A stretch of 63,646 bases of DNA, the filler included, from Chrysochromulina tobinii (Eukaryota), in the NCBI GenBank assembly GCA_001275005.1. It is 8 parts of 8 records of this genome, joined end to end, with 100 filler letters (N's around TTAATTAATTAA, not from the genome) between each part and the next. Parts side by side here need not be neighbours in the genome. Positions count along the whole stretch, not along the records: positions 44,071 to 56,996 come from JWZX01000649.1; 7 more parts are not named here. The stretch is one strand, 5' to 3'. Positions within the stretch are counted from its first letter, which is position 1. Every line of letters begins with the position of its first letter. Position numbers and translations under genes: made by a program. The notes beneath the pieces were generated by a model, which saw only the letters and a list, made by a program, of their open reading frames with translations, ran no database searches and was not told where the DNA came from. Positions 22,944 through 63,646 of this stretch are shown one piece after another.

Positions 22944-25900
22944 GTACACGGCCAAGCTCAAGCAGCGGCACGATGCCGCTCGGGCGCAGCATGAGTCACT
23001 CAGGCAACTCAACGAGCTGCTCGACGACGGCTTGATCACGCCAGAGCTATTTGAGCTCAAGCGGCAGGAGGTGCTCTCGCGCGGTACCGGCGCGGCACCG
23101 GCGCAACACCATCTCGCGCTCCAACAGGGGCCGCGCAGCTCGATGGTCGTTGACGACACTGTCCATGACGTGGTCGGTGCGTTCACTGAGGCGAACGCGA
23201 CACATGGGCCGAGCGCCCCCGCGAGATCTGTTCAGACGATCCAAGCTAAGTTGCTCGGGCAGACCAACGACGACATCGAAGGCGACTTGTTCGAGCTCGA
23301 GGTGCCGCCGAAGGTAAAGCCAGGCATGAAGCTCAGGTTCTCCATTCCTGGCACGGAGGAGACAGTGATGATCCTCGTGCCCGAGGGCGCCGAGCCTGGC
23401 CACACGATCACGTTCACGATGCCCACGAGCATCCACGACTTGGCCCGGGCCAAGCTGCTCGAGCACGAAGGCCATTCGGCTCGGACGATCCAGAAGCTGG
23501 CGCGCGGCAGGCAAGCCCGTCTGGTGCTCAATGGCCAGCGGTTGCGCCAGTCGAAGGCAGTAGTGGCGCCAGAGCCGCCCGAGCCGCCCGCGGCGCCAGA
23601 GCCACCAGAACCGCCCAGGCGCTCTCAGAGGGTTCCAACGGTGCACATGAAGGAAGAAGCCCCCGCCCTCCGAAGCTTTCGTTCGATGAGCGCTCCAAAA
23701 GCTGCTGCACTCCCGCTCACGCTCCCTGGAGCGGTCCCGGAGGAAGAAGTGGCCATTCCCGCTACGCCCGCGTCCCCTAAATCATCGAGACCGAGCGCGA
23801 ATTCTGAGTCGTTCATCAACCTGATGCGCGACCATATCAAGGCAGGCCAGAGCGCCCAGGTGCCCAAGCCACCGAGCTCCGAATCATTCCGATCACTCCT
23901 CAGGGAGCATCGGCTCAATCCCGACGACCCGGAGCTGTACCGCCGTATGCACCACGCCGCCGTCGTCTCGGTGCAAGGGGAGGGGCGGCGGCTCCTCTGT
24001 CGCCGCGCGGCACACAACGCGTGGCAGCGCCTCAGCTCAGCAGTGCCGGCGCAGAAAACGTCGTTTACAAAAGCATCATCATCATCGAGTGCATCAGACC
24101 TCACCAGCCGTCGCTCGTTTCAACGCCCACCCACGAGCGACTCCGATCAAGTGCCTATGGCCTTCGGCATGTGCATGGGCATGCTCGGCACCATGGGGTC
24201 TGCGCCGCCCCTGAAGCGTGCCGCTTCGGTGGAGCTCAGCCGGGCTGGTTCCGAGGAGCTAAAGGCGATCTCGGAGGCGATCTCGGAGGAACCTCCCGAG
24301 GAGCTCAAGACGATCATCGACAAGACCGCCACCTTTGTCGCGCGCAACGGCCCCGACTTTGAGATGCGCATCAAGAACGAGCAAGATCACGCCAAGTTCT
24401 CCTTCTTGCACGCCAACGACCCATTCCACTCATACTACCGCTCCAAGCTTGCCGAGTTCAGTGGCGAGACAAGGGCGCCGAGATCACCAGCGAGATTGCC
24501 AGCGAGATTGCCAAGATCGCCGCCCGGCGCGCCCGTGCCGCTCGGCGCCTTTCTCGTCGCCCATGTTGCCCAAGATGGCGCCTCGCCACCGGCTTCAGTG
24601 GCTCTTGTGATGCCTACGGCTCCTGTGATGCCTACGGCTCTTGTGATGCCCGAAGCAGAGACGCCCCAACGAGCCGAGCAGGAGGCGATGGCCGCCGCCG
24701 CCGCCGAAGTCGCGGCGGCCAGGGCGGAGGCGGCGGCCAAGAAGGAGAGAGTAGTGGCCTTGGCGGCCGAGCTCAGGGCAAACATGGAGGAGGCGGCCAA
24801 AGTTCAATTGGAGGAGGAGGTGGCCAAAGCTGCAGCGGCTCTCGAAGTGGCCAAGGTGGAGGCGGCAGCCAAGGCGGCGGCTGTAGCCGCAGCCAAGGCG
24901 GCGGCGTTCGAAGCTGCGGCGGCGGCTGTAGCTGCAGCTCGCGCGGCGCTCGAAGCAAGCTCGCCGAAGCCAGAGCCTGTGCCAGCTCCGACCGCGCCCG
25001 AAGCCCCATCGTTGTCGCCACAATTCGGGGGCCGGGGCTTTACTCTCTACAGGACTTCTGCTGACTCGCCAGGCCAAGGCAGCAGCAGCCACCTCCAGGC
25101 TGACGAGTCTCCAATTCAAGCCGCAGCAGCGCCACCCGAGCCGCCGAAGCGCACCGCAAGGGTCCAACCCAAATTAGGGACCATCAGGGTCCAGCCCACT
25201 CACATGGAGGCGGAACAAGAAGGGTCTCATCGAAGCAATTTCACCAGCCTGAAGGTCCCGAAGCACGTGCTGGTGGCCCAGGTGGTTCCGGACGAGGAGA
25301 TTGAGGAGATCTCTGGAAGCGGAGCGAGCTCGAAGGAGATCGAGGAGATCGCTGGAAGCGGAGCGAGCTCGAAGCCCCCTCAGAGCAGTGAAGAGGAGCT
25401 CCTCGAGCAAGTGAGGACTGCGATGACTGAGCGGCGCAAGCAGCAGAACTACTGGCGTGAGCGTGCGCGAAACGCCGAGAAGGTGCTTCGCGATCTCGGA
25501 ATCGAGGTCAATGTACAGGAGCTGGACGATGAGCCACCCAGTCGCCCCTCTTCCTCACTGCATCCCCCTGCCGCCTATGACACCGTCTGCGCCTCCCGAA
25601 TCGGCGGCAGCGGTAGCTCCCGAGCCTCCGAAGCGTAGAGACCCTACCCCGAAGCCCCCTCCCTCTACCGAGTTCCCCATGCCACCTATTGCACCGCCTG
25701 CACCGCCTACACCGCCTACACCGCCTGAAGGTGCGCCAGCGTCGGTGGCTCCGGAGCCACCAAAGCGAACTCCTAAGCCAAAGGTTCAATTGCCAGCAGG
25801 TCGGCCGCCTCAACCACCGCCACCACCGCCGCCACCGCCGCCGCCTCCTCCTCCTCTTCCTCCGCCGGTGTTGCCGGTGTTGCCGGAGGTGCCGGAGGTG

Positions 25901-26494
25901 CCGGTGGTGCCCGAAGACGAAATCCCGCTTCGAAGCGCTCGTGATGGCGCTCGACCGATGACTCCGCCTTCCCGACCCGGATCTGGGCCATCGCTGCTTC
26001 AGAAGACGGACCTCATCAAGCGTAAGCTGGGCCTCAGTGGCAACGTGCCGGCTGTCGCCACTACTGCGGCCCAGCAACTGGGCGTCGACGCGACCGCCAA
26101 GACCACGGCAGCAGTCATCAACGAGTGCTACCAGCAAATCCTTTCGGCCAAAGCCATTCCGCAGGCAGGCGAGGGAGCGCCTCGACAGCCAGCCTCGACG
26201 TCGACTCGCCATCGGAGAGACAGAGGCGTTTCTGAGGAGACCGAGGAGACCGAGGCTCCCGAGGTGTCCCTGGGGGGTCATACTCTGAGTTTGGAGAGGA
26301 TCAAGCTTCGGCAAGACTCAAGCTCATCTCCGGCTTCGGAGGCGATCAGCGCGCAGATGAGGTACCTCCAGGCGAGCGAGAAGTCGATCTCGGAAGATCT
26401 AGAATCTTCGCTCGAATCGCCGCCCGCGTCGTCAGCCCCGAAGACCGGCCTTGACGCGGAACAGTCAAGGTTCATGTACATGCTGCGGGTTTAG
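22944..26494 (+). CDS. Large Pro/Ala-rich protein with SHOCT-like, IQ and SURP/SWAP motifs (5'-partial; two overlapping ORFs 23032-25638 and 25457-26494)
   Basis: LRQLNELLDDGLITPELFELKRQEVL; TIQKLARGRQAR; PEELKTIIDKTATFVARNGPDFEMRI..FSFLHANDPFHSYYRSKL. Confidence 0.65.
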
Positions 26495-26853: not shown

Positions 26854-29800
26854 ATGCCGGGCTGCTGTTCAGTTTGCTGCACGCTCCTACGCCGCAAGGA
26901 GGCGCTCCTCAAGGCGAATCGCTGCTGCTCGAGCGTCTTCGAGATCCTGATCCCCATCTTCCTCAGCGCCATCGTGCTGGTCGGCGCCCTCGTCTCTGAG
27001 ATCGAAATGTTCCCGACCGAGCTGTTTGTGCCCGATAACTCAACGATCGCATTTCGGGATCTTCAGGGGCTACTTCCTGACATGACCTTCAATAGCTTCA
27101 CGAGCTTCGCGAGCTTGCCAACCTTTGTGCCGCCGCTTCCTCTCTTTCTCGCGTACAATGCCATGTTCACCTCTGCATTCCCCAAGCCCACCGAGTGGGT
27201 CGATGGTTTCAATCCATACGACGGCTCGTACTTGGCGGTGGCTCCGGACACGCCGGAGGTGCGCGCCTTTGTTCAGAGCGTCGTGAGCCCCGCGCCGCGT
27301 GGGTGGATGATCGACCCGACGAATATGGTTGGCGCTTCGGTCCACGCCTCGCTCAAACACGTCAGCATGATCACCAACAGGGACTTCAACATTTCCAACT
27401 TTGGCCATCAGCCGCTTGAGGTGCGCTACCTGCCGAGCGACGAGGCGCTTGAGGTCCTTGCGCGTGCACGGGGGGCCATCTGGGCGGGCCTCGTCTTCAC
27501 CAGCATCCCGGTCGACGGCGTCGGCACCTGGGAATACAAGCTGCGGTACAACGCCTCTTTGCTTCCGCAAGCCAACAGCAGGTTTGATAGGTTCCCGGGA
27601 CAGGGTACGAGCAGCGCGCTCTCGAAGCAGTTTTTCCAATACTACCGCAGCGGCTTCCTCTCACTGCAGGCCGCGATCAACGAGCGCATCCTCCTCATCA
27701 ACACGCGCGTCAACTCGACCATATCGGCGGTCGAAGATGACGTGCTGCCGTATGGCATGCCCTTCCCCGTGCTGGAGAACAAGCTCAACAGCTTCTTCGC
27801 GTTCGCGGGCAACTTGGTCGGCCTCGTGTGCGTCCTCGCTTACCTGATTCCAGTCTCGACCACTTTGCGCACGCTCGTCCTCGAAAAGGAATCGAAGCTG
27901 CGCGAGCAGCTGCTCATGATGGGCGTCACCCTGCCCGCCTACTACGGCTCCGTGCTCACGACGTTTGGCGCGTCCTTCGCCATCATCGCGGCCATCAGCG
28001 GCGTGATCATCTCGATCGGTTGCTTCACGCACTCCTCGCCTGGCATCGTGGCCATCCTCTTCATCCTGTTTGCACTCGCGTCGCTTGCGTTCACCCTCGC
28101 TATCTCGTCGCTCTTCCGCAACTCGCGCGTCGCGGCGCTCGCGGGGCCTCTCATCTTCTTCCTCACCGCGCAGTTCTACAACGTCTTCCTCGAGCGTGGT
28201 GAGCTGCAGGAGGGGATGAATGGCGCCAAGGCGCTCACCTCGCTCTTCCCCGCCATGGGCTTCTATCTGGGCGCCTCTCTCATGGCCAAGTACGAGGGCA
28301 CCCAAATCGGGATCACAGCCTCGAACTTTGCCACGGCAGGCGGCGGCTTCTCCGTCGCGAACTCGATCGCGATCCTCTTCTTCGACATCTGGCTCTGGCT
28401 CTTCATCGCGTGGTACCTCGACCAGGTCATGCCCTCCGACTACGGCCTCCAGCAACGCCCGTGGTTCCTTTGCTCGCCCTCCTACTGGTGCGGAGACAAG
28501 AACGAGCCACTTGCTCTGCGCGCTCTCATCGCCAACGATGCGAACCGGCCGCTCGCCGTCGAGCCGATAGATGAGCCGATGGGCGCGAGGGGCGTGGTAG
28601 TGCAGGGACTTCGGAAGGTGTGGCCGCCGCGCCGCGTCGCTGTCGAGTCGTTGGATATGGAGATGCGATCTGGGCAGATTACGTCCCTCCTTGGCGCCAA
28701 CGGCGCGGGCAAGACCACGACGATCTCGATGCTGACTGGCCTGATGCCGCCAACGTCGGGCAACGCGACGATTGACGGCCTGAGCATCACGTCGCACATG
28801 GCCACGATCCGCTACTCGCTCGGCGTCTGCCCGCAGCAAAATGTCCTCTTCGACCAGCTGACCCCTGTGCAGCACCTGAGCCTCTACGGTGCCATCAAGG
28901 GGCTCGAGGGCGCGGCTCTGCGGGAGACGATCGACCTTCTGATCAGCAAGGTGATGCTGAGCGAACGCAAGGACGTACAGGCCAGAAATCTGTCGGGCGG
29001 CCAGAAGCGCAAGCTGTGCCTTGCAATCTCGCTCATCGGCGGCGCGAAGACGATCTTCCTCGATGAGCCGACGAGCGGCATGGACCCGCACTCGCGACGC
29101 TCGATCTGGGCGCTGCTGCGCGAGCAGCGCGAGGGACGTACGATCGTGCTCACGACGCACTTCCTCGACGAAGCCGAGATCCTCTCCGATCGCATCGCCA
29201 TCATGGCCGAGGGCAAGCTCAAGTGCGTCGGCTCCCCCTTATTCCTCAAGGAGCACCTGGGCACCGGCTACGCTCTTACCATCACCAAGACGATGGTCGC
29301 TGCCTCGGCCAAGTTTGATAAAGAGATGTTGCTCACGTTTGTGAAGAAGCACGTGCCGCTTGCGACGCTCCAAAGCGAGACGAAGCGCGAGGCGAGCGTG
29401 CGCCTGCCGGGCGACAAGCTCTCGATGTTCCAATCGCTCTTCGAGGAGCTCGACAAAAACTTCCGCCAGCTGGGCATCGATGACTATGGCGCCACGTGCA
29501 CCACCCTCGAGGACGTCTTCCTCAAGATCAACGAGAATGCGCTCCAGCGGCTCGAGGACCAAAAGGAATCGCACAACGATGCGAATCTCCAAAAGGCGCA
29601 CAACGATGCTCGGCTCGAGATCCCACCTCCCAAAGGCGAGCTGATGAAGGGCGCCAAGTCGTCTCCGGACAGCCGCGCGGCACCCCAGGTTTTGGCCCCT
29701 ATGTCCCAGACTGGGGCCACCATGCACGTGTACAGCGGCCTCGTCGCTAAGCGCCGGATCGCCGCGCGCCGTGACTGCTACACGACGTGCTGCATGATCT

Positions 29801-31966
29801 GCTTCCCCGTGTCGCTCGTCATCGGCGCGCTCGCGCTGCTGGGCGTCGCGGGCAGGATCACCGCCATCCCCGACCCAGTTGCCCTGCTCCCCGACCCGCT
29901 CTTCCCGAACGGCTTTGGCGGAGACATCCCGCGGCCGGTGCCGCTCACCGTGCCCAAGGGCAACCTCGCCGAGACTCTGCTTCCACAGCTGGCCGAGGGC
30001 GTCTGCCGGAAGAAAGGTTGCGGATGGATGGGCCTCCAATATCGTGCCAACTCGACTCGGAACGGATTCCTTGAGGTGACGCAGGAGATGGAGGCCTATG
30101 TGCTCGCAAACCCGAGCGAGGCGCGGCCGGCGGCGATGGCATGGAGCCCCGGCGTGCGCATCCCCCCTGCGCCCACTTCCTATAAGGACGTGGGGCCGTA
30201 TTGCGGCGACGCGTATTGCGCCTCCCTCAGTTCCGGCGACGCATATTGCGCCTCCCTCAGCACGCCGGGCCCGTGCCCAGCGACTAGCAACAGCAGCGTG
30301 AGTGTCGTGACTCTTATGCACAACGCAACCAACTGGCACTCGATGCCGATCCTGATCAATACGCTCTACGACGCGCTGCTCCTGCAAGCGACGGGCGGCG
30401 CGAGCACGATCACGGGGTACACCCAGGACCTGCCGCTCGATGACGCGAGCAAGGCGTACATCGACTCGTTCATCGCCGTCTTTGCCGCCATCCTCATCAT
30501 GGTGCCATATTCCTTTGTGGGGGCGACGTTTGTGACGCCCCTCGTCCGTGAGAAGGAATCGGGCTCGAAGGAGATGCAGTTCATCTGCGGCGTTGGCACG
30601 GTGACCTACTGGTTCGCATCATGGACGTGGGACCTGTGCATGTATCTGATCATCGAGCTCGCATCCTTCATCGTCTTCATCATCTTCAATCGCGAGGAGT
30701 TCATCGGCACACCCGAGGCGTTCTGGGGCACCATCTTGATCCTCCTGGGCTTTGGCTGGTCGGTGCTCGGGCTGTCGTCGATGGTCTCCTTCTACTTCAA
30801 GACGCCCTCGAATGCGCTGATCGTGATGATCGCCTTCCACTTTCTGACCGGCTTCGGCATGGTCGTGGCCGACTTTATCCTAGCGAACATCGAATCGACC
30901 AAGGAGATCATCAAAGGCCTGCGCCACTTTTTCCGCATCTTCCCGGCCTATTGTCTCGGCCAAGGGTTCGTGACGCTCGCGACCCGCAAGTCGACCAAAG
31001 CGATCAGCGCCCTCATCCCGGGGCTTCCTTCGATTCCAACGCCTGGGCTGTATGAATGGGACCAGCTTGGCGCGATCATCTTTTACCTCTTCGTCACCGG
31101 CCTCATCTTTGGCCTGGCGACCCTCGGGTTCCAGTACGGCAGCTCGTACGTCGCCCTGCGCCAGCGCATGTCCGTTTCGGGAGGGCTCGCCGCCGCGACG
31201 GGTTCCACAAGCACCACCGAGCAGAGCGCCCTCGAGGATGATTCGGTCATCGAGGAGCGCCGGCGTGTGGACGCCGGCGACACGAAGGACTCGATGCTCG
31301 TGCTCAGCCACATGCGCAAGGTCTTCACGGGCGTCTCCGTCAACCGGAAGACGACCCAAAAGATCGCTGTGCGCGACCTCTCGCTGCGCATCGACGCGGG
31401 AGAGTGCTTCGGCTTCCTCGGCGTCAACGGCGCCGGCAAGTCGACAACCTTCTCGATGCTCACGGGCACGCTCGTGCCGACCTCGGGCGATGCGACTCTC
31501 AACGGCATGTCGATCCTGTCCGAGCAAGAGAAGATCCGCCGGCTCGTGGGCTACTGCTCGCAGCACGATACGCTCGAGCACCTGCTCACCGCGCGCGAGA
31601 CGCTCCGCATGTACGCAAGGATCAAGAAGGTAGATCCCGCCATCATTGAGTTCGAGGTCGACCAGCTCATCAAGGATCTCGATCTCGGCAAGTTTGCGGA
31701 CAAGCCCGCGGGCACGTACTCGGGCGGCAACAAGCGCAAGCTCTGCGTCGGCATCTCGTTGATTGGCAACCCGCAGCTCGTGCTGCTCGACGAGCCTTCG
31801 TCGGGCATGGACGCGGCGTCCAAGCGCTTCCTGTGGACACTGATCAAGCGGCGCACGGCGCAGGTCTGCACAGTCCTAACGACCCATTCGATGGAGGAGT
31901 GTGAGGCGCTCTGCGGCCGCATCGGCGTGATGGTCGACGGCACCCTCCGCTGCCTCGGCCCCATTC
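26854..31966 (+). CDS. ABC transporter subfamily A (full transporter), 3'-truncated by gap, intronless
   Basis: Two TMD-NBD halves: LGANGAGKTTT/LSGGQKRKL/LDEPTSGMD and LGVNGAGKSTT/YSGGNKRKL/LDEPSSGMD; EKESKLRE, TTLEDVFL. Confidence 0.96.
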
Positions 31967-32086
31967 NNNNNNNNNNNNNNNNNNNNNNNNNNNNNNNNNN
32001 NNNNNNNNNNTTAATTAATTAANNNNNNNNNNNNNNNNNNNNNNNNNNNNNNNNNNNNNNNNNNNNTCGCCACCGCCACCTTCTCC

Positions 32087-35000
32087 GCCACCTCCATCGC
32101 ACCCTCCATCGCCACCGCCGCCCTCGCCGCCGCCGCCCCCGCCTCCGCCGCCCACAAGCTATTCTGCCCTGCTGGCGCTCGGGACCTACCACACGTGCGC
32201 GTACCTGACAAACGGCGCGCTCCTCAAGTGCTGGGGCGCCAACGGCAACGGCCAGCTTGGCGATAATACGACGACCCAACGCGCCACCCCGACCACGATC
32301 GACGTCGGCGGCGCCGTCGGGCTGCTGGCGCTCGGAGGCTCCTGCACGTGCGCGTACGTGACGAGCAGCGCGCTCCCTCAAGTGCTGGGGCTACAACGGC
32401 AACGGCCAGCTCGGCGACGGCACGACGACCCCACGCGCCACCCCGACCACGATCAACGTCGGCGGCGCCGTCGGGTTGCTGGCGTTCGGAGGCCCCCACA
32501 CGTGCGCGTACTTGACGAACAGCACGCTCCTCAAGTGCTGGGGCTCCAACTGGGCCGGCCAGCTCGGCGACGGCACGACGACCCAACGCGCCACCCCGAC
32601 CACGATGGACGTCGGCGGCGCCGTCGGGCTGCTGGCGCTCGGATACTCCCACACGTGCGCGTACCTGACGGCCAGCGCGCTCCTCAAGTGCTGGGGCTAC
32701 AACTACAACGGCCAGCTCGGTGACGGCACGACGACCCATCGCGCCACCCCGACCACGATCGACGTCGGCGGCGCCGTCGGGCTGCTGGCGCTCGGAGACC
32801 ACCACACGTGCGCGTACCTGACGAACAGCACGCTCCTCAAGTGCTGGGGCTACAACATCTACGGCCAGCTCGGCGACGGCACGACGACCCAACGCGCCAC
32901 CCCGACCACGATCGACGTCGGCGGCGCCGTCGGGCTGCTGGCGCTCGGAGGCTCCCACACGTGCGCGTACGTGACGAACAGCACGCTCCTCAAGTGCTGG
33001 GGCGCCAACTACTTCGGCCAGCTCGGCGACGGCACGACGACCCAACGCGCCACCCCGACCACAATCAACTTCTGGGGCACCGTTGGGCTGCTGGCGCTCG
33101 GAGGCTCCCACACGTGCGCGTATGTGACGAACAGCACGCTCCCCAAGTGCTGGGGCTACAACTACTACGGCCAGCTCGGCGACAACACGACGACCAATCG
33201 CGTCAGCCCCTTTTCGCCGCCTGCTCTATGCGGCACCCTCTCGGCAGACACGTTCCTCGTCGCGGGGGGTCAAGTCTACGTTCTCACGTGCCAGGTGTTC
33301 GTGCCCTCGGGCGTCGTACTGCGTATCGCGCAGGGCGTCACCATTTACGCCTCGCCGGTGGCTGCCGGTGGCGGCGGCGCGCCCGCCCTGATCGTCGAGA
33401 AGGGCGGCTCTCTGCTCGCCGAGGGCTCTGCGACTGCGCCGATCACATTCACTGCCTTCAACCCCACCGAGTCATCGTCCTCGTCGTCGGTGTCGACCGA
33501 CCCTACCGTGCTCGAGACGCGCGGCAAGTGGGGCGGGCTCATCCTGCTCGGCAGCGCGCCGACCAACGTGGCGACCACCACGATCATCGAGGGCATCACC
33601 GCGAAAACGTACGGCGGCACCAATCCGACCGACTCGTCGGGCTCCCTGCAGTACGTGCGCGTGTGGCACGGCGGCGCGGTCGTGGGCGCGAACAACGAGA
33701 TCAACGGCATCACCTTCGGCGGCGTCGGCTCCGGCACCATCGTCGACCACTGCGAGGTGGCGTACAACGTGGACGACGGGTTCGAGTTTTTCGGCGGCAC
33801 CGTGAACGTCAAGTACCTGTCGGCGCTCTTCGTGGGCGACGACGGCTTCGACACGGACCAGGGCTACATTGGCAAGGGCCAGTTCCTGATCGTCATCGAG
33901 GGCCTGAGTGGCGACCACTCGATGGAGATCGACTCGGGCATCGGCTCGAATCAGGACGTGACCCCGCGCTCGCACCCGGCCTTCTACTCGTTCACCTTGA
34001 TCGGCGGAGGCACCGGTACTGGCGCGCGCACGGGCGAGCTGATCCACGTCAACGACGGCACGGGTGGCAAGTTCGGCAACGGCATCCTGGCGTACCCGCA
34101 CTTGAACGGCCTCCTCTTCGAGGACTGCGGCTCGACGCTGAGCTACACGCAGACGCTGCCGGCGGCCTCGGTCAGCATTTCGAACCCCGGATACTTTTAC
34201 TTCTCGGCCAACAACATCATCGACACGGCGACGACTGCGTCGCAGTTCGCTCTGCTCGCCGGTGGCTCCGGCGTCGCCGCCTGCACGCCCGCGGACACGT
34301 GGACGGCGGTTCTTGGTGCCCCCGGCTTCGTTGCGGTCAGCGCCGCCACTGACCTCGCGGAGGGCTCCGCCACCTTCAACCCTCTGCCGTCCGCCACCGG
34401 CGCGGCGTGCACGGGCACCAAGGACGCACTCCCCAACAGCGACCCCTTCTTCTCGTCGGTGAGCTGCAAGGGCGCGTTCGGCTCCTCGACGGACAACTGG
34501 CTCGCCGGCTACTCGTGGCTCGCGTGCAGTGGCAAGATGGCTGGCGCCACGTGCCCGGGCGTACCGGCGACGTTGTTTGCTGCGCTTGGTTCCTCTGTGG
34601 TTGCGATTGGAGGGACCATCTCCAGCTCGTTGGCCCTCGTCTCTGGCACTTCGTACCTGCTCACGTCGCAGCTCTTCGTGCCCTCTGGAATGGCCCTGAA
34701 CATTGAGGCCGGAGTCATGGTGTACGCGCTTCCAGCCGCCTCGCCAACCAGTGCTCCGGCGATCGTGGTCTTGAAGGGTGGCAGGATCGTTGCGCCGGGC
34801 ACGGCGACCATGCCGATCACGTTCACGTCCGTGCTTGCGGAGTCGGCGCTCGTGAGCTCGGCCACCGCCTCCACGGACTCGAATGAGAACGCCATCACGC
34901 TCGGCGAGCGCGGCAAGTGGGGTGGCCTCATCCTGCTCGGCAAAGCGCCGACCAACATGCCGACCAGCACGCAGATCGAGGGCATCACCGGCTACACGTA

Positions 35001-35140
35001 CGGCGGCACCGACGCGACCGAGTCGTCGGGCACTTTGCAGTACGTGCGTGTATGGCACGGCGGCGCGATCGTGGGCGCGAACAACGAGATCAACGGCATC
35101 ACCTTCGGCGGCGTCGGCTCCGGCACGACGGTCGCGTACT
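32087..35140 (+). CDS. Surface protein fragment: SP-rich linker, seven RCC1-like repeats, tandem bacterial-type beta-helix domains; +1 frameshift at about 32376
   Basis: HTCAY..LKCWGxNxxGQLGDGTT repeats; GKWGGLILLG..YGG..SGSLQYVRV..NEINGITFGGVGSGT..DDGFEFFGGTV, with the first part repeated again before the gap. Confidence 0.85.
32165..33200 (+). repeat. 153-bp coding tandem repeats x7 (RCC1-like)
   Basis: caagtgctggggc recurs at about 153-bp spacing. Confidence 0.95.
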
Positions 35141-40500: not shown

Positions 40501-42125
40501 CAGTGGCCGCCATCGGCTACATGTGAGCCTCGATAGCCTCGATGGCTGATTGCCACTTCTTGCCACTGATGACCTCTGATTGCCTCCCTCATCAGGTGAG
40601 CCTCGATGGCCTCGAGTGAGGAGGCCTTGCATGCAAGTGCTCACCACGGCGCGCCCCTTCCCCACAGGTGAGCCTCGATGGCCTCGAGGTACTCCGGTCA
40701 CCCGTGCACCTCCGTGTGAGTGCGGCGCCGCCCGACGTGGCGCGCTTCCAACTGACGGGCGAAGGGCTCCAGGCAGCCAACGCTGGCGAGCCCGTGCGTC
40801 TGTGCATACGCTGCTTCGACGCGTTTGGCAACCGGCTGCGGCCGCCGCACGGCTTGCCACTATCGCAGACGAACGCCGTGTTCGGCATCGCCATCGTCGA
40901 CAGCGGCAAGGGCAGCAGCGGCAGCGGCAGCAGCGGCAGCGGCAGCGGCAATAAGGGGCGAGCAGCAGCCAAGGCGAACGGTCTGACGAAGCTCCCGCGA
41001 GAGTCTCAAGAGCTCGTCAATCTGCCGGAGTTTCGTCAGGAGTTTCGTCAGGAGCAGCAGCAGCAGCAGCAGCAGCAGCTCGTTCCGCGCCAGCCGCACG
41101 TACCCCTGCGAGCAGGGCACTGCGGTGTCCTAGCCGGCCTCCGCCTCGGCTTCGACTCGATCATAGAGTCGATGCCCTTTGAGGGCAGTTGGCTTGAGGC
41201 GGACGAGTACAGCCTCGCATTGGTCGCCGAGCGCGCGGGAGATTTTGAGCTGCACGTGTGGGTCGAGCTCACGGGCCGGGGAGGTGGGCGCGCCGCACGC
41301 GAGCAGTTGCCAGGCTCGCCGCTCGCGCTGAACGTGCAGCCCTGCCGCCCTAGCGCGGCCACATCGATCATTTGCGCGCCCGAGCCGCTCAAGTCGGGAA
41401 CGCTCACGATGGCCGCGGGTCCCGCCGACATCAGCTTCCGTGTGCAGCTCCGCGACGAGTACGGGAACACGACCCCCGCTAATGAGAGAGCGCTGAAGGC
41501 ACTGGGCATCGTCGCGCACGCGCCCGACGCTGAGCGTCCTCTGTCGGTCACGCGCGTCTCGGACGCCCTCGGAGAGTGCTTGGTGTCCTACCAACCTGCT
41601 CTGTACCCGATGCTCGTGGGCGAATACCGGATCGCCATCATGCTCGGGCACGAGATCCTCGGCGAGTCGCCACTCGTCTTCGCGGTCACGCCTGGCCCAG
41701 CGGACGCCCCGAACTGCGTCATCAGCATGCCCAGCCGTGCGCCCATCTACGATCCGTACTCGAATAACCGACCCTTCAGTGCGACGCTGACGGCGTTCGA
41801 CCAGTTTGGAAACCGGCTGTGCAGGGGCGGTGCAAACGTCATGGCGCGCGTGCAGCAGGTGGAGAGAAACGGCGAGACGACGGGCGTTCCATTATCGGCG
41901 AATGTGGAGGACTGCAAGGACGGCGAATACCGCTTCACCTTCACCTGGCATCGTGTGAGCTTGGTGCTGCTGCAGGTGCGCATCGAGAACAGTGATCTCG
42001 AACCGCAGCACGTCGAATTCTTCGACCCACTCGCGCAGATGGCGCAGAGGGCGAGGGCCAAGTCACCGCCACCAGAGCAGGAGGAGAGCGACGGGGACGG
42101 TAGAGGCGAGGAATCAGAGGGTTGA
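37565..42125 (+). CDS. Filamin/ABP280 Ig-repeat protein with IQ motifs; intron 40523-40667
   Basis: FTIVARDAFD..GGDPFVV..DTGDGRYAVEF..GTYSVCVSLHGAKVAGSP and further copies; IQSIFRG and IQACARG motifs. Confidence 0.85.
40629..40667 (+). promoter_or_regulatory. Recurrent branch/acceptor cassette B, GCATGCAAGTGCTCACCACGGCGC-Yn-CCCCACAG (representative copy)
   Basis: Copies near 1455, 40629, 55244/55304/55364, 55847, 57397, 57923, 58922 (+) and 4240, 6305, 6944, 7455, 7530 (-). Confidence 0.85.
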
Positions 42126-42900: not shown

Positions 42901-43249
42901 CTAGATGTTAGAGATTAGAAGCGCCAACAAGGGCCTTGGTAACCGAAGGCGCGGGTGCCGATACCCCAGGCTGTGCCGACCTCCAGGCGGGCGAGGCGTG
43001 ATACATGCGAAAAACGAGTCGCAAACTTACCTTGTGTGTCGATTCAACTGACCCTTTCTCAAACTTGACGCAACAGGAAAGCAATTTGCATGCATGAGAA
43101 TTTGCCTACAATCCTCAAATCAACGCGAAAGGTCTCAGCTCCACAAAAGCCGCATCCCGCCGGCGCATCTTGCTCACGTCGATCTGTTGCGCCTGCCGCC
43201 CTTGACGTTCTTGTTCGCCCCTGAAGACAACCAATCTAGCGCTATCGCG

Positions 43250-43970
43250 CTAGAACCCACCGTCTTCTCTGTACTTCTCCCTTGAGGTGTCAACGGACGC
43301 CGCGTCGAACACGAAACTCGAGAGACGGCGGTCAAGGCGGTCCGACGGTAGCGGGGTTGGCGATGGGGATGGCGGCGGTGGCGAGAGGATTGCTGTGCAG
43401 CACGAGAAGCCGCTGCATCCCCTCGCGCCGAAGCCACAGGCGGCTCCGTCCGAGGCTTGGCCGAGCCTGCAGCAGGCACCCTGAGCGCCACAAAACGTTG
43501 GGCAAGGGCCGGCACGTCCGCACGCTGTCCAGCAGCGGAGACCCACGTTCCGCAATGAGGGTTGGGGCGGTGAGGGCGAGGGGGGCGGCGGAGAAGGCGA
43601 TGGCGGTGTGAGTAACGAGGGGGCAAGTTCGAGGACGCTCAATGCCAGCGGCGGTGGCGAGAGGATTGCTGTGCAGCACGAGAAGCCGCTGCATCCCCTC
43701 GCGCCGAAGCCACAGGCGGCTCCGTCCGAGGCTTGGCCCAGCCTGCAGCAGGCACCCTGAACGCCACAAAACGTTGGGCAAGGGCCTGCACGTCTGCAAG
43801 CTGTCCAGCAGCGGAGACCCACGTTCCGCAATGAGGGTTGGGGCGGTGAGGGCGAGGGTGGCGGCGGAGAAGGCGATGGCGGTGTGAGTAACGAGGGGGC
43901 GAGTTCGAGGACGCTCAATGCCGGCGGCGGTGGCGAGAGGATTGCTGTGCAGCACGAGAAGCCGCTGCAT
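43250..43970 (-). CDS. Cys-rich repeat protein with SPPPP linkers (5'-partial); 276-bp units
   Basis: LRNVGLRCWTACxRAGPCPTFCGxQGACCRLG..CGFGARGCSGFSCC twice plus a partial third; anchors at 43381, 43657 and 43933. Confidence 0.75.
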
Positions 43971-44070: not shown

Positions 44071-45967
44071 CGCCATCATGCCGTACGGCATCATGCCCAT
44101 CCCCATCCCCATACCCGGCTGCGGCTGCATCATGCCCATCCCCATCCACCTCTGAGCGATCAAGACCTTGTTCTCGGCGTTGACCGCGAGGTTCTCTAGC
44201 GCACCCGCCGCGTTCTTCTTTTGGTCATCCGTGCCGCTCTGCACCAGCGTCACGAGCGGCGCGACGGCGCCAGCCTGCGCGATCAAGACCTGGTTCTCGG
44301 CGTTGTTGAACGCGAGGCTCCACAGCGCAACCGCCGCGTGCTCCTTTTGGCCATCTGTGCCGCTCTGCACCAGCGTCACGAGCGGCGCGATGGCGCCAGC
44401 CTGCGCGATCAAGACCTTGTTCTCGGCGTTGAACGCGAGCCACCGCAGCGCAGCCGCCGCCTGCTCCTTTTGGCCAGCCGTGCCGCTCTGCACCAGCGTC
44501 ACGAGCGGCGCGATGGCGCCCGCCTGCGCGATCAAGACCTGGTTCTCGGCGTTGCACGCAAGGTTCCCCAGTGCACGCGCCGCGTGCTCCTTCTGGCCAT
44601 CCGTGCCGCTCTGCACCAGCGTCACGAGCGGCACGATGGCGCCAGCCTGCGCGATCAAGACCTGGTTCTCGGCGTTGTTAGCCGCGAGGTTCGCCAGCGC
44701 AACCGCCAAACCCTCGCGCTCCATGACCGCTTGGAACGCGCCTTGCACGGTCACGTCGAGCGCCTTGATCTTGGGCAGCTGGCCTTCCTTGTCGCTCTGG
44801 TTGGTCACCGTCACGTCCGGCTTGGAGAGGAAGTCGAAGGCCTGCTGAGGCGTCTTGGTGGCCCACTGCTCGGTGAGCACCTTGGCGAACGTATCGGCCT
44901 GAGCGGCGGCGTTCTGGATGCACACGATGTGGTAGCGCGCGTTTTCCGTGCCAACCGCCGACTTGAGGCCGTTAGGCGTCGCAAACTGCATGCTCAGCCA
45001 CGCCTCGAACTGCGTCCAGAAGCGGGACAAATACGAGAGGTCGAAGAGGATGAGGACGGTCGTGCCGAGGTAGAGCATGTTGACCTGCGCGCAAGTTAAC
45101 GGGGGAGAGAAAGGGCGGGGTGTAGCTGAGTGGTGGGGAAAGGTGGCGAAAAAACAAAAGGGCGGTGCCCGAGGCAAAGCGCGGCACAGACCTGCGACAG
45201 CATGGTCTTGAAATCGGCCGTGTCCTCGTCGCTGCGAATGAGGCCGATGGTAGGCTGGTGCTGTGGCATTGACCCGCCGTCGATCCACACGAGCTCGATC
45301 CGCTTGCCAGCCGACGAAACGAGAAAGGCCTTGATGGCCTTGAGCTGTTCGCCGTCGGGGTCGGGCTGAGTAGGGACCATCCAGCGATGGGAGATGGACA
45401 GAATCTTCTCGACATGTGTCCCGCGGACCACCTCTTCATAGCTGATGGTCACCTCGACGAAAGCACTCGGGTGCTTCGCGCGCAGCTCCTGGAAAAAGGG
45501 CAGGTTCGTGCCGGTGAAGGTGCGCAGGAAGTCCGCCTTGATCATCCAGAACCTACACGAGACAGGGCCTGCTGGCGCTTGAACAGCGCTCGGTGATCGG
45601 GATGGTGCGGCCTGTGCCAGTGCAGCACTGGGATGTAGATCAGGGGGGCTCGCCGGGTGCTGCGGCGTGGGCTTGGAGGCAGCGGCATTCCCCGTCGTCG
45701 CACCCTCGCGCTCCATGACGGCTGGCGGATACTCGTCGTCGTTGGGGGGCGCTTGCGCCTCGTTTTGCCCCCGAGCGGTCTGGCTGCTCGACGGTGCAAC
45801 GGGAACGATTTCGAGACGTCAAGGCCGAGGCTCGCCAGCTTCATCTTTTCTTGATCGCCCACTTTGACGAGGAAAGCCGACCGCTCATCTGCCGATGCAC
45901 CTTCGTACGCGGCCTTGATGTCCGCGTCTGGGCTCTCGACGGACAAAGCCGAGGCGCCCGCGCCCAT
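44071..45967 (-). CDS. N-myristoylated HET-like domain + armadillo repeat protein; intron 45191-45085; frameshift near 45810; 3'-truncated
   Basis: MGAGAS start; ILSISHRW..PDPDGEQL..VWIDGGSMPQ..MLSQ|VNMLY..YLSRFWTQFE; ARM units NAENQVLIAQAGAIAPLVTLVQSGTDGQKEHAAxAL. Confidence 0.8.
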
Positions 45968-46289: not shown

Positions 46290-47688
46290 TTAGGCAAGAG
46301 CAGGCGCCATCAACTCGTCGGAGACCAAGCCTTTCAGAGGCTGCTTCTTATGCAGCCGCTCGACGTTCTCGACAAAGTACCTGCGCCGCACACACATCAT
46401 TACACGGTGGCACCCATCATTACACGGTGGCACCCCAGTGGCAATCAGTGCCACTCCGTGGCGCTCAGCGGCACTCAGAGGCACCCAGTGGCTATCAGCC
46501 GGCGCCCCTCTCGCGCCACTCAGCGCCAAACCGCACCTTGAGTGGCAATCAGTGGCAATCAGTGGCAATCAATGGCAATCAGTGGCAATCAGTGGCAATC
46601 AGTGGCAATCAGTGGCAATCAGTGGCAATCAGTGCCAATCAGTGGCAATCAGTGGCAATCAGTGGCAATCAGTGCCAATCAGTGCCAATCAGTGGCACTC
46701 AGTGCCAATCAGTGCCAATCAGTGCCAATCAGTGGCCATCCAAACCACACCTGTGATTATCCTTGAGTGCCTCATCGGTCCTCCAAGAGTCATGCGGCGT
46801 GATGATGACATTCTCCATCGCCCACAGCGCCGAGTCGGGCGGCAACGGCTCCGTCGCAAAGACGTCGAGCACAGCACCTGCCACGCCGGCCGAGCCGAGC
46901 GCCGAGATGAGCGCCGTCTCGTCGACCACCGCGCCCCTGGCGACGTTGATCAGCCACGCGCTTGGCTTCATCATCCTCAGCCGCTCGGCGTTCAGCAGGC
47001 CGGTCGTGGCCGCCGTCTTGGGCACCGCCACCACCACAAAATCCGAAGTCGAGAGGACAGCGGCGAGGCCATCGTCGCCGCTGAGAACCTCGTCGAAGTT
47101 GAGTGCCGGCGCCGCCTGTCGACGCCATCCGAGGACGCGCATCCCAAACGCTTTACTCAACCTCGCCACCTCGGTGCCTATGCCTCCTGCGCCGATGACG
47201 CCGACCGTGCACGTGCGCGCATCGCGCTGGAGGAGGCTCGTGTACGAGCGGCTCGCCTGGTTGGCGGCGTGCGCCGGCCCCATCCGGCAGATGGAGAGTA
47301 TGTGGCCCAGGCAGTACTGCGCGATCGGGACTGCGTACACGCCGGGACAGTGCGTGATCGTCACGTTGGCCTCGTGGCAAGCCTTCATCAGCGGAAAGAA
47401 GAGTGGGACGTCGAGACCGGAGGCGCACATGTGCACCCACGCCACACGGCCCGCGCGCACAAGGCCGGCGAGGACGTCGTACAGCTCCGCGAGCGCCTTG
47501 GCACCGGACTCGAAGTAGAGCTTGAACGACTCGGGCGTGATCATCGCGCCGTCCCACGTGGCGTCGTCGGCCGCATCGAAGGTACCATCGAACTGTAGGG
47601 TGGTTACGCTCGCAGGGATCGCGGCCAGCTCCGATGCCCAGTTCTGCGCAATGGGCGGCGTGCACAGAAGCCGCAGGTCCTCGGCCAT
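46290..47688 (-). CDS. D-isomer-specific 2-hydroxyacid dehydrogenase; exons 47688-46751, 46380-46290
   Basis: VGVIGAGGIGTEVAR, MKPSAWLINVARGAVVDE, GAVLDVFATEPLP, VIITPH. Confidence 0.93.
46541..46740 (-). repeat. Intronic decamer array (CTGATTGCCA)n, about 20 copies
   Basis: agtggcaatc/agtgccaatc tandem on + strand. Confidence 0.95.
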
Positions 47689-53458: not shown

Positions 53459-53666
53459 ATGCTGAGAGAAACGGAAAGAAGATTTCTCCTGCTATCCGCC
53501 GGCACGATCTTCTTCATCCAGGTGAGCTGCATCATCGAGGAGTGGATCTTCAAGCAGTTGGCCGACTTCCACTACCACTGGTTCGTTGCGCTTCTCGAGC
53601 TTGCGATCTTCAGCCTCTTTGGCCACCTGGCGCACGTGAGCGATTGCGACGGCAGCAGCAGCAGCA

Positions 53667-53706
<40 letters not shown>

Positions 53707-55686
53707 CGGCGGCAGCGGCAGCAGCGGCAGCGGCGGCAGCAGCTGTACGACACCCGCGCGGAAAGGGCCGCTGCGCCTGTACGTGCTGGTCGGCCTCTCC
53801 CTCGCCGCGGGTACGGGGCTGGGCAAGGTCGCGTACCGGTACGTGAACTACGCGACGGGTACGGTGCTCAAGTCGATGAAGCTGCTGCCCGTGATGGCCG
53901 TCTCCGTTTGCTGGCTCCATCGGAGCTACACGAGGCTCCAGGTGGCTGCGGCCGTGCTGATGGTCGGCTCGGCCGTGTGCTTTGGGCTGGGCGAGGCGGA
54001 GCTCGAGCCGAGCTTCCATCCGCTAGGCTTGCTGCTCTCGTTTGGGTGCCTGGTCGCTCAGGTGACGAATCTGATGACCTCTGATGACCTCTGATGACCT
54101 CTGATGACCTCTGATGACCTCTGATGACCTCTGACGACCTCTGATGACCTCTGACGACCTCTGATGACCTCTGATGACCTCTGATGACCTCTGATGACCT
54201 CTGATGACCTCTGATGACCTCTGATGGTCGCTCAACAGTGATGAATCACCTCCGGATGCTCAGCACGTGATTGCCAATTGTTTGGCCACGTGATTGCCAC
54301 GTGATTGCGCATTCTGAGTGCCATAAACGTCAATTGGGTTGAGTCTCGATGATTGCCTCTGATGACCTCTGATGCCATCGATTGAGCCTCGTTGATGACC
54401 TCGGATGGCGCAGGCGCTCTGATGACCTCTGTTGACCTCTGATGATCGTTGATGACCTCTGATGGCGCAGGCGCTCCAGAACAACACGTCTGACCGGCTG
54501 CTGCGCGACTACGGTGTGAACGTTCACGAGGCGATGGCTTGGTCGAACGGTGTGGGCGCCGTCGCGGTGCTCTTTGTCACGCTATGGACGGGCGAACTGT
54601 GGAGGGCACTTGCCTATTTTGGAAACACCGGCCTCGGCTCGGCGCTGCTGCTACTGCGCTCGCTCCTCTTTTATGTGGGGGCTTTGCTCTACACGATACT
54701 CATCAGGTGAGTGACCTCGGAGTGACCTCGGAGTGACCTCGGAGTGACCTCGGAGTGACCTCGGAGTGACCTCGGAGTGACCTCGGAGTGACCTCGGAGT
54801 GACCTCGGAGGGCCATCTGAGTGACCTCTGCCGTCGACTCACTGACTGTATGCGGTGTGAATGTGAATGTGAATGCCCTCTGCCGTCGACTCACTGACTG
54901 TATGCGGTGTGAATGTGAATGCCCTCTGCCGTCGACTCACTGACTGTATGCGGTGTGAATTCACAGTGAGAGTGGGGCCGTCACCGCCGTCTTCGTGACG
55001 ACGATGAGGAAAGCGCTCACGGTGGCGCTCTCATTCCTCATCTTCCCCAAGCCATGGTGATGACCTCTGATGGCTGCTGATGACCCTTGATGGCCAATGA
55101 TGGCCAATGAATTGTCACTGATGGTCGCCGATTTCCACTGACGTCGCAGGTGCTCAAAATACTCTCTTGGGCTACTGCTGCTGCTGGCGGCCATCGTGTG
55201 CGAGGTGCGCCCCTCTCCGCTCCTCTCAGCTTGCAACGGCTCGCATGCAAGCGCCCATCACGGCGCGGCACGCCCCTCTCCGCTCCTCTCAGCTTGCAAC
55301 GGCTCGCATGCAAGCGCCCATCACGGCGCGACACGCCCCTCTCCGCTCCTCTCAGCTTGCAACGGCTCGCATGCAAGTGCCCATCACGGCGCGTCGCCTC
55401 CCCTCTCCTCCCGTCACAGGCGCGCGGCAAGCCAGCCAAGGACCATCAGCGCTCGCCGCCGCCCACCAGTGAGCATGCACGCGCTCCATATGGCGCGGTG
55501 TGCGGCGGCGCAGACGACAGCCCAGGCGCCGAGCTGGGCGCCGAGCTGCGCGGGCTGGGCGCCGTGCTGGGCGCGAGCAGCGGCGGGATGCGCGCCCGGG
55601 AGGGCGCCCGGGATGTTGCCTCTCCGGAGCCCAAGGATGATGACCACGACGGCGCGGGCGAGGAGCAGCCGCTCGTGCGCCCGTGA
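53459..55686 (+). CDS. Nucleotide-sugar/PAPS transporter (SLC35B/UAA family); exons 53459-54061, 54471-54706, 54967-55056, 55151-55204, 55420-55686
   Basis: YRYVNYATGTVLKSMKLLPVM, FHPLGLLL, GAVTAVFVTTMRKALTVALSFLIFPKP; all joins in frame. Confidence 0.9.
54071..54226 (+). repeat. Intronic decamer array (CTGATGACCT)n; an 11-mer array (GAGTGACCTCG)n follows at 54709-54809
   Basis: Direct tandem repeats. Confidence 0.95.
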
Positions 55687-56305
55687 CGAAGGCGTCGTAT
55701 TGGGCACCATGACCACGACGGCGCGGGCGAGGAGCAGCCGCTCGTGCGCCCGTGATGAAGGCGTCGTATTGGGCACCACCCGTGTGCCACCCGTGACACG
55801 TCGAATCGGCCGTTGCACTCGACCCTTCTATATGGACCTCCGCCTTGCATGCACGTGCTCACCACGGCGCCCTCGGTCGAATCGTCGTTGCACTCGACAC
55901 GGATTTTGCGTGGTATTCACGCAGCATACAGGCGTACATAGCCGCGGAGTCTAACAGATGCGTGCAGGGTGCAGCTCGAGGTTCCATAGAAAATAGGTAA
56001 CTGCTTAAAACTCGCGACCCCGGCCCCGCGACTGCCGCATGTGGCATGTGCCGTCGCGAATGAACAAGGAGCGTGCCTTCCGGCCTCACTTACTTGACCG
56101 CCCGTTAAGGCCGTGTCCATCACTCGCTCACTCACTCACTCACTCCCTCACTCCCTCACTCGATTGTGTGATATCCAGGCTCTTGGAGTGCGTGGGGACC
56201 ACGACGAAACTGACATGAAAACCTAATTAGGTTCGGCAACCCCGCGTGCGCAAAAGGCAAGCCGACGGCCGCAAAACCTCTCGTCGCGCCTGTTCTGGCG
56301 CGATC

Positions 56306-61635: not shown

Positions 61636-63646
61636 ATGATGGCTGACCTTGTCCGCATGTCGGCATGCCCCTATAAAAGCGAATCTCTCGACCTCTGCTC
61701 AAGTAACTTCTTCATCCATTTGATGGATCTCAAGAGTGTCGAAACGCAGATCACGAAGGTAGTCAAGCAGCGCCAGCATACTCACACACTCTTCCAGCAG
61801 TACAGACTTGTGGCGTGTGGTGGGACAGAGCGTGTGGTCACTGGCTTGAAGCCCTTCTTCTCCGCCTTCCGCAACTATCGTACGGCCATCCTTAGTTGCC
61901 CCCTCGCCCACCCCCCTTCTCATCCCCCTCCTGTGGTGTCTTCCCTGGTCAGGAACAAGGGCAAAAGCGCAAAATGCTGCTGTAAACGCGTTGCTCAATA
62001 CCACGCTGCGATGCGGTGAGGAGATCGCAGGTGCCAGACCTCGTGCAACAAGGACTGTGGATGAGGAGAAAGACCTGCAGACAGCTGCGGACCATGCGGA
62101 GGCTGCCCAGCTTCCTCCCAACACCGAGGAGGAGGTGCCTTGTAATATGTGGGATGCAGCTGAAGACCGTCAGGGTCGAGCAGAAGGAGATGAGCAGCTG
62201 GATGAGCTTGCCACTGCCCTTTCAGGTGCTGACGAGGAGCCAGCTCAATCGTACGGCCTCATGGTGAAAGACGACGCCTTGGCGTATGCCTTGGTCCTTC
62301 TCATGATGGACTCTTGCCCGACCACCGGGCACATTAGCAGCACTATAGTTGCACGGATGACTTGCGATGCAGCTCGCATCAGAGGGCAGCTTGTGGGCTA
62401 CCAGAAATGGACATCAGTCATAACGCAGGTGATCGGCAATGGGAAGCTAGGCTGCGAGGCAGTTCGGCACCGTTTCAAGACAGCGATGTGCAGTTCACGT
62501 GCCATCTTTGACCGCCTTGGTCCAGGCTCCGACAACCTACCATGGCTCGAGCGCAACTTCGTCCCGTATCTGCGACAAATTGCTGCGTGCAATCAAGCCA
62601 CCCAAGCGGGACGGGCTCGGAAGTACAATCTTGTGTTGGCACGCTCGCCATTGCAGTTCAGCCCATCGGACAACCCGAACGATCACAATCAATCCAAGTG
62701 GTCTCCTGTCTTCTGCTTTCCAAGGTCTCCGCATCGCCCCACTCCTGTGGACCTGAGCGATCAATGGGCAGGCACCACGGAAGACTGGCTCAATAGCCTG
62801 TATCACGTTGTGCCAACTCCTCTGCTTGTGGAATGGATCTTGGGCCTTGATGGTGGCACCTTCTGTGCCCTTACGCGCACGAGCCCATCGGGTGCAATGC
62901 CTGATGCTTGGACGCTGGCTGTCCAGGCAGAGACACAGAAACCGTATGAGTATGCTGTCCTCAAGAAGGGCAAGAGTGCTGAGGTCTTTGCTGCGGAGCA
63001 TGACCCGAAGAGTGGATGCCTGACGGATGAGATTGAGCACGCAAAGCGCAAACGATGAGCGGTTTAACCGTCGTCAGTTCAGCCTCACCAGGTCTCCTCG
63101 AGAGAAGCCAACACTCGATGCACCACAGACTGGGCCCCAGCGTGGTGGCACACGACAAGCAGCAGAGTTGAGAGCCCTCGCCCAAGACCAGGATCCACAA
63201 CTGCGAGCTGCTCGTGGAGCTATATTCACGGAAGGCATCTCGGATGATGATGACGAACGAGCGCAGCCACAGTTCCAGACACGCATTGAGTATGAGGACC
63301 AGGACTTTAACAATCTTCCAACACCATTCAACCCTGATTCGTTCCGCCCACCACCGAGCTTCACAAAGTCCAAGACGTACGAGACTGACGTGGTCATACG
63401 TGTGCCTGTCAAGTGGTCACAGAATCGTACGCAGACGCGAGCTCTGATTGCGCCACATGAGCCCCCACTGTCACCTTCATCATGTCCTTCCCCTGTATGA
63501 CTGAATGTGCTGCTTCGAGCTCTCAGGTACCGTGGAAGGCATCCTTGGAGAAAATGATGGAGAGCTCCTTAAGCAGTTCACATTTTGCGCCCTGCACATC
63601 CAAATGCGTATTGTTGAATGGATTGGCAACCGCACTCTTGCTGATG
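61636..63646 (+). mobile_element. Lower-GC ORF region (61636-62019, 61991-63058, 63027-end), possibly transposon-derived
   Basis: Codon usage is visibly less GC3-biased than the host genes; overlapping broken ORFs; terminal FCALHIQMRIVE resembles the xLHxxxR motif of Transib/RAG1-like transposases. Confidence 0.3.

Follow-up and report, generated by a model that had tools for sequence, protein, structure and literature searches.

What gives rise to the tandem arrays of 10- and 11-nt, TGA-containing units found in introns of the haptophyte Chrysochromulina tobinii, and why do they read in the direction of transcription? The question is posed by an intron at positions 54062-54470 of the stretch of DNA analysed here (the window; 63,646 nt, GC about 63%), in which eight contigs are joined with seven artificial linkers between them (each TTAATTAATTAA set between two N runs; gaps at 13411, 22790, 31967, 35141, 43971, 56997 and 60830). 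The host gene encodes a UAA-family (SLC35B3/PAPST2-like) nucleotide-sugar transporter, identified by Pfam PF08449 (E 1e-13) and by homologues, and its 90%-identity protein cluster includes a protein of Chrysochromulina parva. The gene model joins 53459-54061, 54471-54706, 54967-55056 and 55150 onward, and its first three junctions are gap-free against 8/8 full-length homologues tried. The gene contains:

53459-54061, + strand: exon 1 of the UAA-family transporter (Pfam PF08449, homologues)
54062-54470, + strand: intron 1, 409 nt, GT..AG, phase 0 (gap-free spliced alignment; C. parva protein P0044)
54070-54226, + strand: (TCTGATGACC) x15.7, 97% matched (TRF)
54225-54247, + strand: degenerate copy of the end of exon 1 and the donor, the original lying at 54051-54071 (sequence)
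54264-54308, + strand: older degenerate 11-mer run, CACGTGATTGC x4, 77% (tandem repeat detection)
54357-54476, + strand: 57-nt tandem duplication across the acceptor, taking in 6 exon bases (tandem repeat detection, spliced alignment)
54471-54706, + strand: exon 2 (spliced alignment)
54707-54966, + strand: intron 2, 260 nt; 54709-54828 holds (GAGTGACCTCG) x10.9 (spliced alignment, tandem repeat detection)
55057-55149, + strand: intron 3, 93 nt, nearly all degenerate 10-mer units beginning at the donor (spliced alignment)
55205-55419, + strand: intron 4, 215 nt, a 63-nt unit x3.2 built on cassette A, described below (repeat and cassette scan)

A first-pass annotation of the window had placed the array at 54062-54470 within an intron, and the gap-free spliced alignment bears this out, delimiting a GT..AG intron that rests on homology, the gene being outside RNA-contig coverage. 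When eight AGs in or just past intron 1 were tested, the frame was open only with 54470 and 54479, and the 54470 junction is shared by C. parva P0044, a model that itself ends at the start of intron 2. The copy at 54225-54247 joins the pure array via a 2-nt overlap, and the 57-nt duplication provides a decoy AG at 54413, which keeps the frame but meets a TGA, besides the true AG at 54470. The 63-mer of intron 4 has no stop in any frame and a period divisible by 3. The intron 1 array is not an assembly artefact, given that both flanks of the pure array are confirmed by a DNA run (matches at 53749-54096 and 54200-54626 with 0 differences) and that the same junction copies occur in an allele on another metagenome contig (L010); assembly may have affected how many copies the pure array shows. 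Summed DNA-run depth reaches 55,848 in the array bin against about 48 on single-copy stretches, a value that is not a copy number.

We annotated 40 introns in the window, 17 of them RNA-supported (14 from listed joints, 2 from piece boundaries and 1 from a loose end, among the best joints listed), 4 by homology and 19 by ORF restoration; removal of the ORF-restored introns yields long frames, such as 811 aa over 10 introns in an SCC3/SA-like gene. Three partial introns at contig ends are excluded, as are four uncertain candidates (about 42904-43030, 45553-45820, 61871-61951 and 63400-63527), which are counted under other non-coding DNA. The introns are 64-409 nt long with locus-specific 5' ends, 29/40 are in phase 0, and the downstream exon begins with GT in 21/40, the GT frequency in gene bodies being 0.042. 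GC donors occur in 3/40 introns, at 4485(-), which is RNA-supported, 57382 and 57623. Intron density is patchy: long genes (ABC-transporter-like and others) at 26854-31965, 22946-26491 and 32067-35139 are intron-free, and neighbours have up to 10 introns per 3.5 kb.

The arrays are real and strongly non-random. The core TGATKRC is found 147 times in sense and once in antisense in the 40 introns (7,031 nt), 70 versus 0 in the RNA-supported introns only, 15 versus 24 times in CDS, and 5 times in the 11,115 nt of non-coding DNA that remain. Pairs of cores in tandem number 74 sense and 0 antisense in introns, with 2 more in partial introns, and there are none in the 44,300 nt of CDS or the 11 kb of other non-coding DNA of the window; with a looser pattern, a sense pair is present in 25 introns and an antisense pair in 1 (P 8e-7), and CTGATGACCT occurs 22 times on the + strand and 0 times on the -. 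Array orientation therefore follows the host gene, as the first-pass annotation had noted, and arrays are not equally common in antisense or intergenic DNA of the window, the outcome it had named as contrary to its view; its nine motifs were all recovered on the strands it had assigned, with positions right to one unit or less. The consensus of 158 units is (C/T)TGAT(T/G)(A/G)C(C/G)H. Arrays are carried by 25/40 introns and lacking from 15/40, while the stop-codon comparisons below used 21 array introns and 19 others.

One explanation holds that selection favoured periods that are not multiples of 3 as an NMD trap, giving a retained intron stops in every frame. Pure 10- and 11-mer TGA arrays do give stops in all three frames, as had been noted, and an in-frame stop is present in 21/21 array introns versus 9/19 others, with stops in all frames in 20/21 versus 3/19. 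Every decoy acceptor (19/19) leads to a stop or a frameshift, the five that keep the frame (5/5) leading to a stop; 3n-length introns number 7/40 (one-sided P 0.02); and NMD has been proposed as a help or safety net for new introns of Drosophila (PMC2809761, in the part available). Shuffling, however, already yields an expected 19.7/21 array introns with an in-frame stop and 4.7/5 for the frame-keeping decoys, and when the core TGA is masked 18/21 array introns still have a stop and the other 3 shift the frame, the TGA stops being redundant in 21/21. Only a single frame is relevant per intron and one stop suffices, yet arrays have up to 20 copies. The deficit of 3n introns may be a product of ORF-based detection, since it is not seen among RNA-supported introns (5/17).

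The period itself likewise argues against this explanation. Core spacings (10:75, 11:26, 12:15, 13:3, 9:0) peak once, at 10, and tail off above it; 12 shows no depletion, its 15 cases fitting the fall from 26 at 11 to 3 at 13. In runs of at least 3 cores the modal period is 10 in 21/30, 11 in 6/30 and 12 in 3/30, and recurring spacings per intron are multiples of 3 in 7/33 cases (P 0.095), or 7/13 without the 10/20 mode, so that the depletion of periods divisible by 3 expected by the first-pass annotation was not found in the window; 12-, 21-, 24- and 63-mers are present, and the exceptions of period 12 and 24 that it listed are real and intronic. The cores show no frame preference (68/64/58 per frame; first cores 9/10/8). 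The NMD-frame reading is thus unlikely, and we rate selection of the period for this purpose as very improbable. TGA richness would nonetheless expose mis-spliced forms to NMD and may aid the survival of new introns, the period not being tuned to frame.

A second proposal, that the arrays are selected splicing signals, i.e. tandem branch-point or SF1/BBP-like sites that mark introns where the genome is GC-rich and splice sites are weak, accounts for the 147:1 strand bias and the confinement to introns. Most unit positions also fit the branch-point-like motif YTGAY (T at -1 in 138/158, Y at -2 in 149/158, T at +2 in 140/158), and YTRAY lies about 17 nt upstream of the AG in several introns ending in the acceptor cassette B introduced below. 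To this extent the splicing signal suggested earlier stands: units match the motif, and one cassette ends in an acceptor. Against the remainder of the suggestion, 15/40 introns have no array, the cores are spread throughout the intron and are denser at its 5' end (52/46/39/31/22 by fifth, 5' to 3'), 18/158 units are of a GAG type without Y, and the 11-mer array of intron 2 is absent from allele L010. Moreover, inner copies of array and acceptor are skipped in the listed joints of the RNA-supported introns at 453, 870, 6305, 6539 and 7788. We consider selection as splicing signals doubtful, if compatible with an origin by copying. Recursive splicing via inner AG/GT sites is unsupported (12 seen vs 13.7 +/- 3.7).

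The predominance of periods 10 and 11 could also suggest a DNA-level helical-repeat signal, with nucleosome or protein binding at about 10.5 bp. The autocorrelation maxima lie at exactly 10, 20, 30 and 40 (0.41, 0.36, 0.34, 0.32), not at 21, 31-32 and 42, which rejects a helical period of 10.5 bp, and a signal in DNA need not track transcript direction or shun intergenic DNA; we regard this reading as extremely improbable. CUGAUGA could be read as a C/D-box or k-turn motif. We dropped this interpretation of the units, half of which are TGATT, as the window has no match to a known structured RNA (e.g. a C/D snoRNA) at the Rfam gathering score.

Many array introns are also related to their own exons. 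We looked inside each intron for copies of the adjoining part of either exon, namely where the next one starts or the previous one ends (junction copies; x-drop score of at least 9), and found them, 9-46 nt long, in 17/40 introns and in 7/17 RNA-supported ones, against 0.64% of 1,560 cross pairs; control segments 30 nt off the junction are copied in just 3 and 0 introns. Junction copies are present in 16/25 array introns versus 1/15 others (Fisher P 6e-4), leaving 9/25 array introns without one; the copy in intron 54062-54470 itself scored 8, under the threshold of 9. In six introns the copy opens the intron and gives its GT, and in three it closes the intron and gives its AG. Joints between array and copy show microhomology; counted once for each side and intron, it amounts to 32 vs 15.7 expected (P 3e-4), with 19 vs 7.6 expected at the 3' joint of the array (P 3e-4), the 5' joint taken alone not being significant (13 vs 8.1, P 0.08). 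The junction copies in 17/40 introns and the array microhomology are new relative to the first-pass annotation.

Two cassettes end 15/40 introns, 8 for A (..GCATGCAAGTGCTCACCACGGCGC..CAG) and 7 for B (..GATTGCCTCCCTCATCAG), and the upstream decamer of cassette B is the array unit. Sense matches to cassette B number 19, all intronic, and those to cassette A comprise 11 in introns, 1 in an annotated exon and 1 downstream of a gene, in addition to one weak antisense match. Array introns on different contigs share words of at least 14 nt in 30/227 pairs in sense and 0 in antisense. Similar intron sequence is therefore present at unrelated gene positions, as in introners, limited to 3' parts and arrays. 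Pairs from the same gene are no closer (P 0.35), which rejects local same-gene templating; templates would therefore be genome-wide. The array units look like an amplified branch-point decamer of a shared 3'-splice-site cassette. Several introns illustrate these combinations:

20856-20928, - strand: 21-nt copy of the next exon's start, giving GT, a 10-mer run and a cassette B acceptor (ORF-inferred intron)
40523-40667, + strand: exon start in three copies, with cassette B then cassette A in between (ORF-inferred intron)
1346-1501, + strand: 46-nt copy of the next exon's start, 14-nt copy of the previous exon's end and a cassette A acceptor (RNA-supported)
453-706, + strand: 10-mer array; a duplication of 73 nt takes in array, acceptor and exon start, the inner acceptor being skipped (RNA-supported)
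46381-46750, - strand: (GATTGCCACT) x20, the array noted earlier at 46541 (ORF-inferred intron)

The first of these reads as a clean example of intron birth, and in intron 1346-1501 the 14-nt exon-end copy meets a 10-mer run via a 5-nt microhomology. At 6944-7036 (-), a 93-nt, stop-free GT..AG cassette A insert lies in frame within a coding region and is crossed unspliced by RNA contigs of two runs, among the joints listed, beyond which a spliced form may occur; it may be a new intron that is retained or has failed, and that NMD would not see. At 9438-11627, a leucine-rich-repeat-like gene has a 69-nt repeat and an in-frame TAA near 11250, and its RNA contigs represent many divergent paralogues.

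Comparison of alleles and homologous loci bears on the age of these introns. Allele L010 has an exon 1 that is 99% identical and the same junction copies; its intron 1 contains a TCTGATGACC array x7.7 with an extra internal block, and its intron 2, by direct comparison of the sequences, is 66 nt long, with no 11-mer array and the in-frame stop still there. Among 21 related exon-1 proteins, read-through peptides indicate an intron start like that of the window in 16, 5 additional codons in 3, fewer than two array units in 1 and no sign of the array before the stop in 1, a tally at the protein level only, in which assembler collapse is possible. In 12 distant homologous loci (L011-L022; 47-60% identity, tblastn), the intron 1 site is read through in 12/12, L018 aligning to residue 244 only but still across intron 1, and the sites of introns 2 and 3 in 11/12; some of these contigs may be cDNA-derived. 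The intron 1 position is, by this 12/12 read-through, likely recent and lineage-specific, again as in introners. Among the alleles compared, none from the same species lacked the intron. Because the distant loci read through and the arrays vary in L010 and the peptides, the transporter introns are likely recent gains and their arrays labile; two alleles cannot polarise gain versus loss.

Similar arrays occur beyond the window. An Argonaute (PAZ + Piwi) gene at 13539-16364 of contig L009 continues the last ORF of the window before the 56997 gap, and its intron at 14195-14401 consists of three tandem 69-nt units, each a 25-nt exon-start copy plus cassette B; L008 and L024 also have sense arrays in what appear to be introns. 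Two bacterial genome bins include contigs (L003, L024, L008) that look algal, bear introns and have the same arrays, likely through contamination; in prokaryote genomes, 8 loci matched, of which 2 are apparent algal contamination (3/8 inspected). Viral contigs have no match to the exact array or to cassette B. A loose pattern gives 121 stretches there, mostly of period 12, which look unrelated, the 36 shorter ones listed having a GC of 0.23-0.56. Phage and giant-virus loci (e.g. L039, L050, L072, L142) contain three-copy TGATKRC runs with 10-11-base spacing, mostly in AT-rich, apparently non-coding DNA, and are probably unrelated protein-binding repeats.

Could the arrays be subterminal transposase-binding repeats of a classical introner/MITE family? 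Common cassettes end 8 (A) and 7 (B) of the 40 introns, the unit core CTGATGA and the acceptor TCATCAG are reverse complements, and the donor derives from a duplication, as described for Polarella classes 4/5 and 6/8/10 in the available part of bioRxiv 10.1101/2020.10.14.339549. The duplications here measure 9-46 nt, however, versus the fixed 3-8-nt TSDs given there for the Polarella classes; the 40 introns (64-409 nt) have no constant 5' end, end-to-end similarity or characteristic length, and we found no fixed left end. Furthermore, the 2025 survey, in its available part, gives 0 introner families for C. tobinii (PMC12130899). We do not class the array introns as MITE introners, because tests for a short fixed-length TSD and for end-to-end similarity failed, and judge a classical family quite unlikely; the arrays are introner-like, but no fixed-TSD introner.

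Other systems share part of this picture. In Symbiodinium and Polarella, introners carry the 3' splice site and obtain the 5' site from target duplication (available parts of bioRxiv 10.1101/2020.10.14.339549, PMC9860276 and PMC11282704). As described there, and as here, introns are new and lineage-specific, the mRNA is unchanged, phase 0 is favoured, and the repeated sequence brings one splice site and the duplicated target the other; unlike there, the duplications in C. tobinii are long and variable, no 5' end or length is constant, the body is a minisatellite, and existing junctions are struck repeatedly. In the available part of PMC12130899, introner fam24 of Emiliania huxleyi, also a haptophyte, is listed with 5 copies and "10bp terminal direct repeats", a direct repeat longer than usual, and with the same splice-site logic (co-opt 5', carry 3'), and fam1 of Pavlovales is classed as non-LTR; unlike the C. 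tobinii arrays, both are small fixed families, in a comparison by description, not sequence. Intron gain via double-strand-break repair or tandem duplication with direct repeats has been reported in Daphnia and Drosophila, where such repeats are rare or not over background (19/77 vs 26/100 for at least 5 bp; PMC2809761, PMC3296678, available parts). There too direct repeats overlap the splice sites of new introns, with NMD proposed as a safety net; the filler there is mostly of no known source, whereas here it is genome-wide and intron-derived, and the copies are long. The parts of PMC4580454, PMC12480563 and PMC3152781 available contain nothing on arrays or cassettes, and the two motifs are absent from the part of the PMC9860276 supplement searched. 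Nothing in the literature we searched describes these arrays or cassettes; outside that search, the genome paper of E. huxleyi and some supplements of PMC12130899 and the bioRxiv paper may bear on novelty.

We favour, with moderate confidence, a model in which cassettes derived from introns are copied by microhomology-primed template switching, leaving long target duplications of variable length; inserts are retained only where they can be spliced, and then expand by slippage. Among the three origins offered by the first-pass annotation, this agrees best with production by the insertion machinery, on the strength of the junction copies and microhomology. The two cassette families would be the source: a nascent DNA end in a gene would switch to one of many cassette or array copies, copy 30-200 nt and rejoin upstream, leaving a variable target duplication. 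An exonic insert would persist only if its sense reading supplied a branch point and YAG and the duplication added the missing GT (or AG), the mRNA being unchanged by a surviving insert; arrays would be in sense because only sense-spliceable inserts survive. Sense copies already in introns would seed later events, and arrays would grow or shrink, likely by slippage; between the two alleles, array length and presence do vary. TGA would be a by-product of the branch-point-like YTGAT.

Several points weigh against this copying. Some events amount to no more than tandem duplication of a junction already present, and several cases (periods 57, 73, 89, 92) fit such local duplication equally well; it also occurs outside introns. 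Local duplication is generally frequent in the C. tobinii genome, and tandem duplications of 11-276 nt without the TGA core are found outside introns too (2041-2124, 3037-3129, 43372-43970, 55640-55778). In addition, 19/40 introns rest on ORF restoration, and no enzyme or autonomous element for copying was identified. The weak point is that arrays are missing from the antisense strand and from the 11 kb of non-coding DNA outside the introns, which untargeted insertion does not predict; targeting, seeding or function must therefore be added, and an RNA template or a splicing function is still conceivable.

Insertion by non-LTR TPRT leaves a variable TSD, a fixed 3' end, variable 5' truncation and 3' microhomology. 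Set against these features, the window has variable copies, AG-ended cassettes and microhomology that is stronger at the 3' joint, and no poly(A) was seen. Conceivably, spliced-out intron RNA, with AG as its end, serves as the template from which a repair or retrotransposon enzyme reverse-transcribes new copies into transcribed genes, which would yield 5'-truncated acceptor cassettes and long, variable duplications; we hold this alternative to be unlikely, on a par with selected splicing signals.

The 2013 Nature paper of Read et al. reportedly describes stranded 10-11-bp tandem repeats in E. huxleyi introns, and is said not to tie them to junction duplications or intron birth. Found in a second haptophyte, these repeats would resemble the present arrays in the size of the unit, the strand bias and the placement in introns. 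The finding is thus known in kind, haptophyte intron repeats having reportedly been seen before and introner-like gain being established; what is new is that long, variable duplications are tied to a minisatellite body.

The origin of new spliceosomal introns is a long-standing question. This culturable algal genus shows the source sequence, the footprint at the target and segregating alleles together, which makes the mechanism directly testable. Decoy junction copies may mislead gene models, as in C. parva P0044, which stops where intron 2 starts. Copying of intron-derived cassettes would supply an origin for the stranded repeats said to occur in E. huxleyi introns, and would explain the 0 introner families for C. 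tobinii in the available part of the 2025 screen (PMC12130899). If intron RNA is indeed copied back, the haptophyte 10-11-mer repeats would be the amplified branch-point tail of that cycle, and such copy-back would constitute a transposase-free route of mass intron gain overlooked by family-based introner screens.
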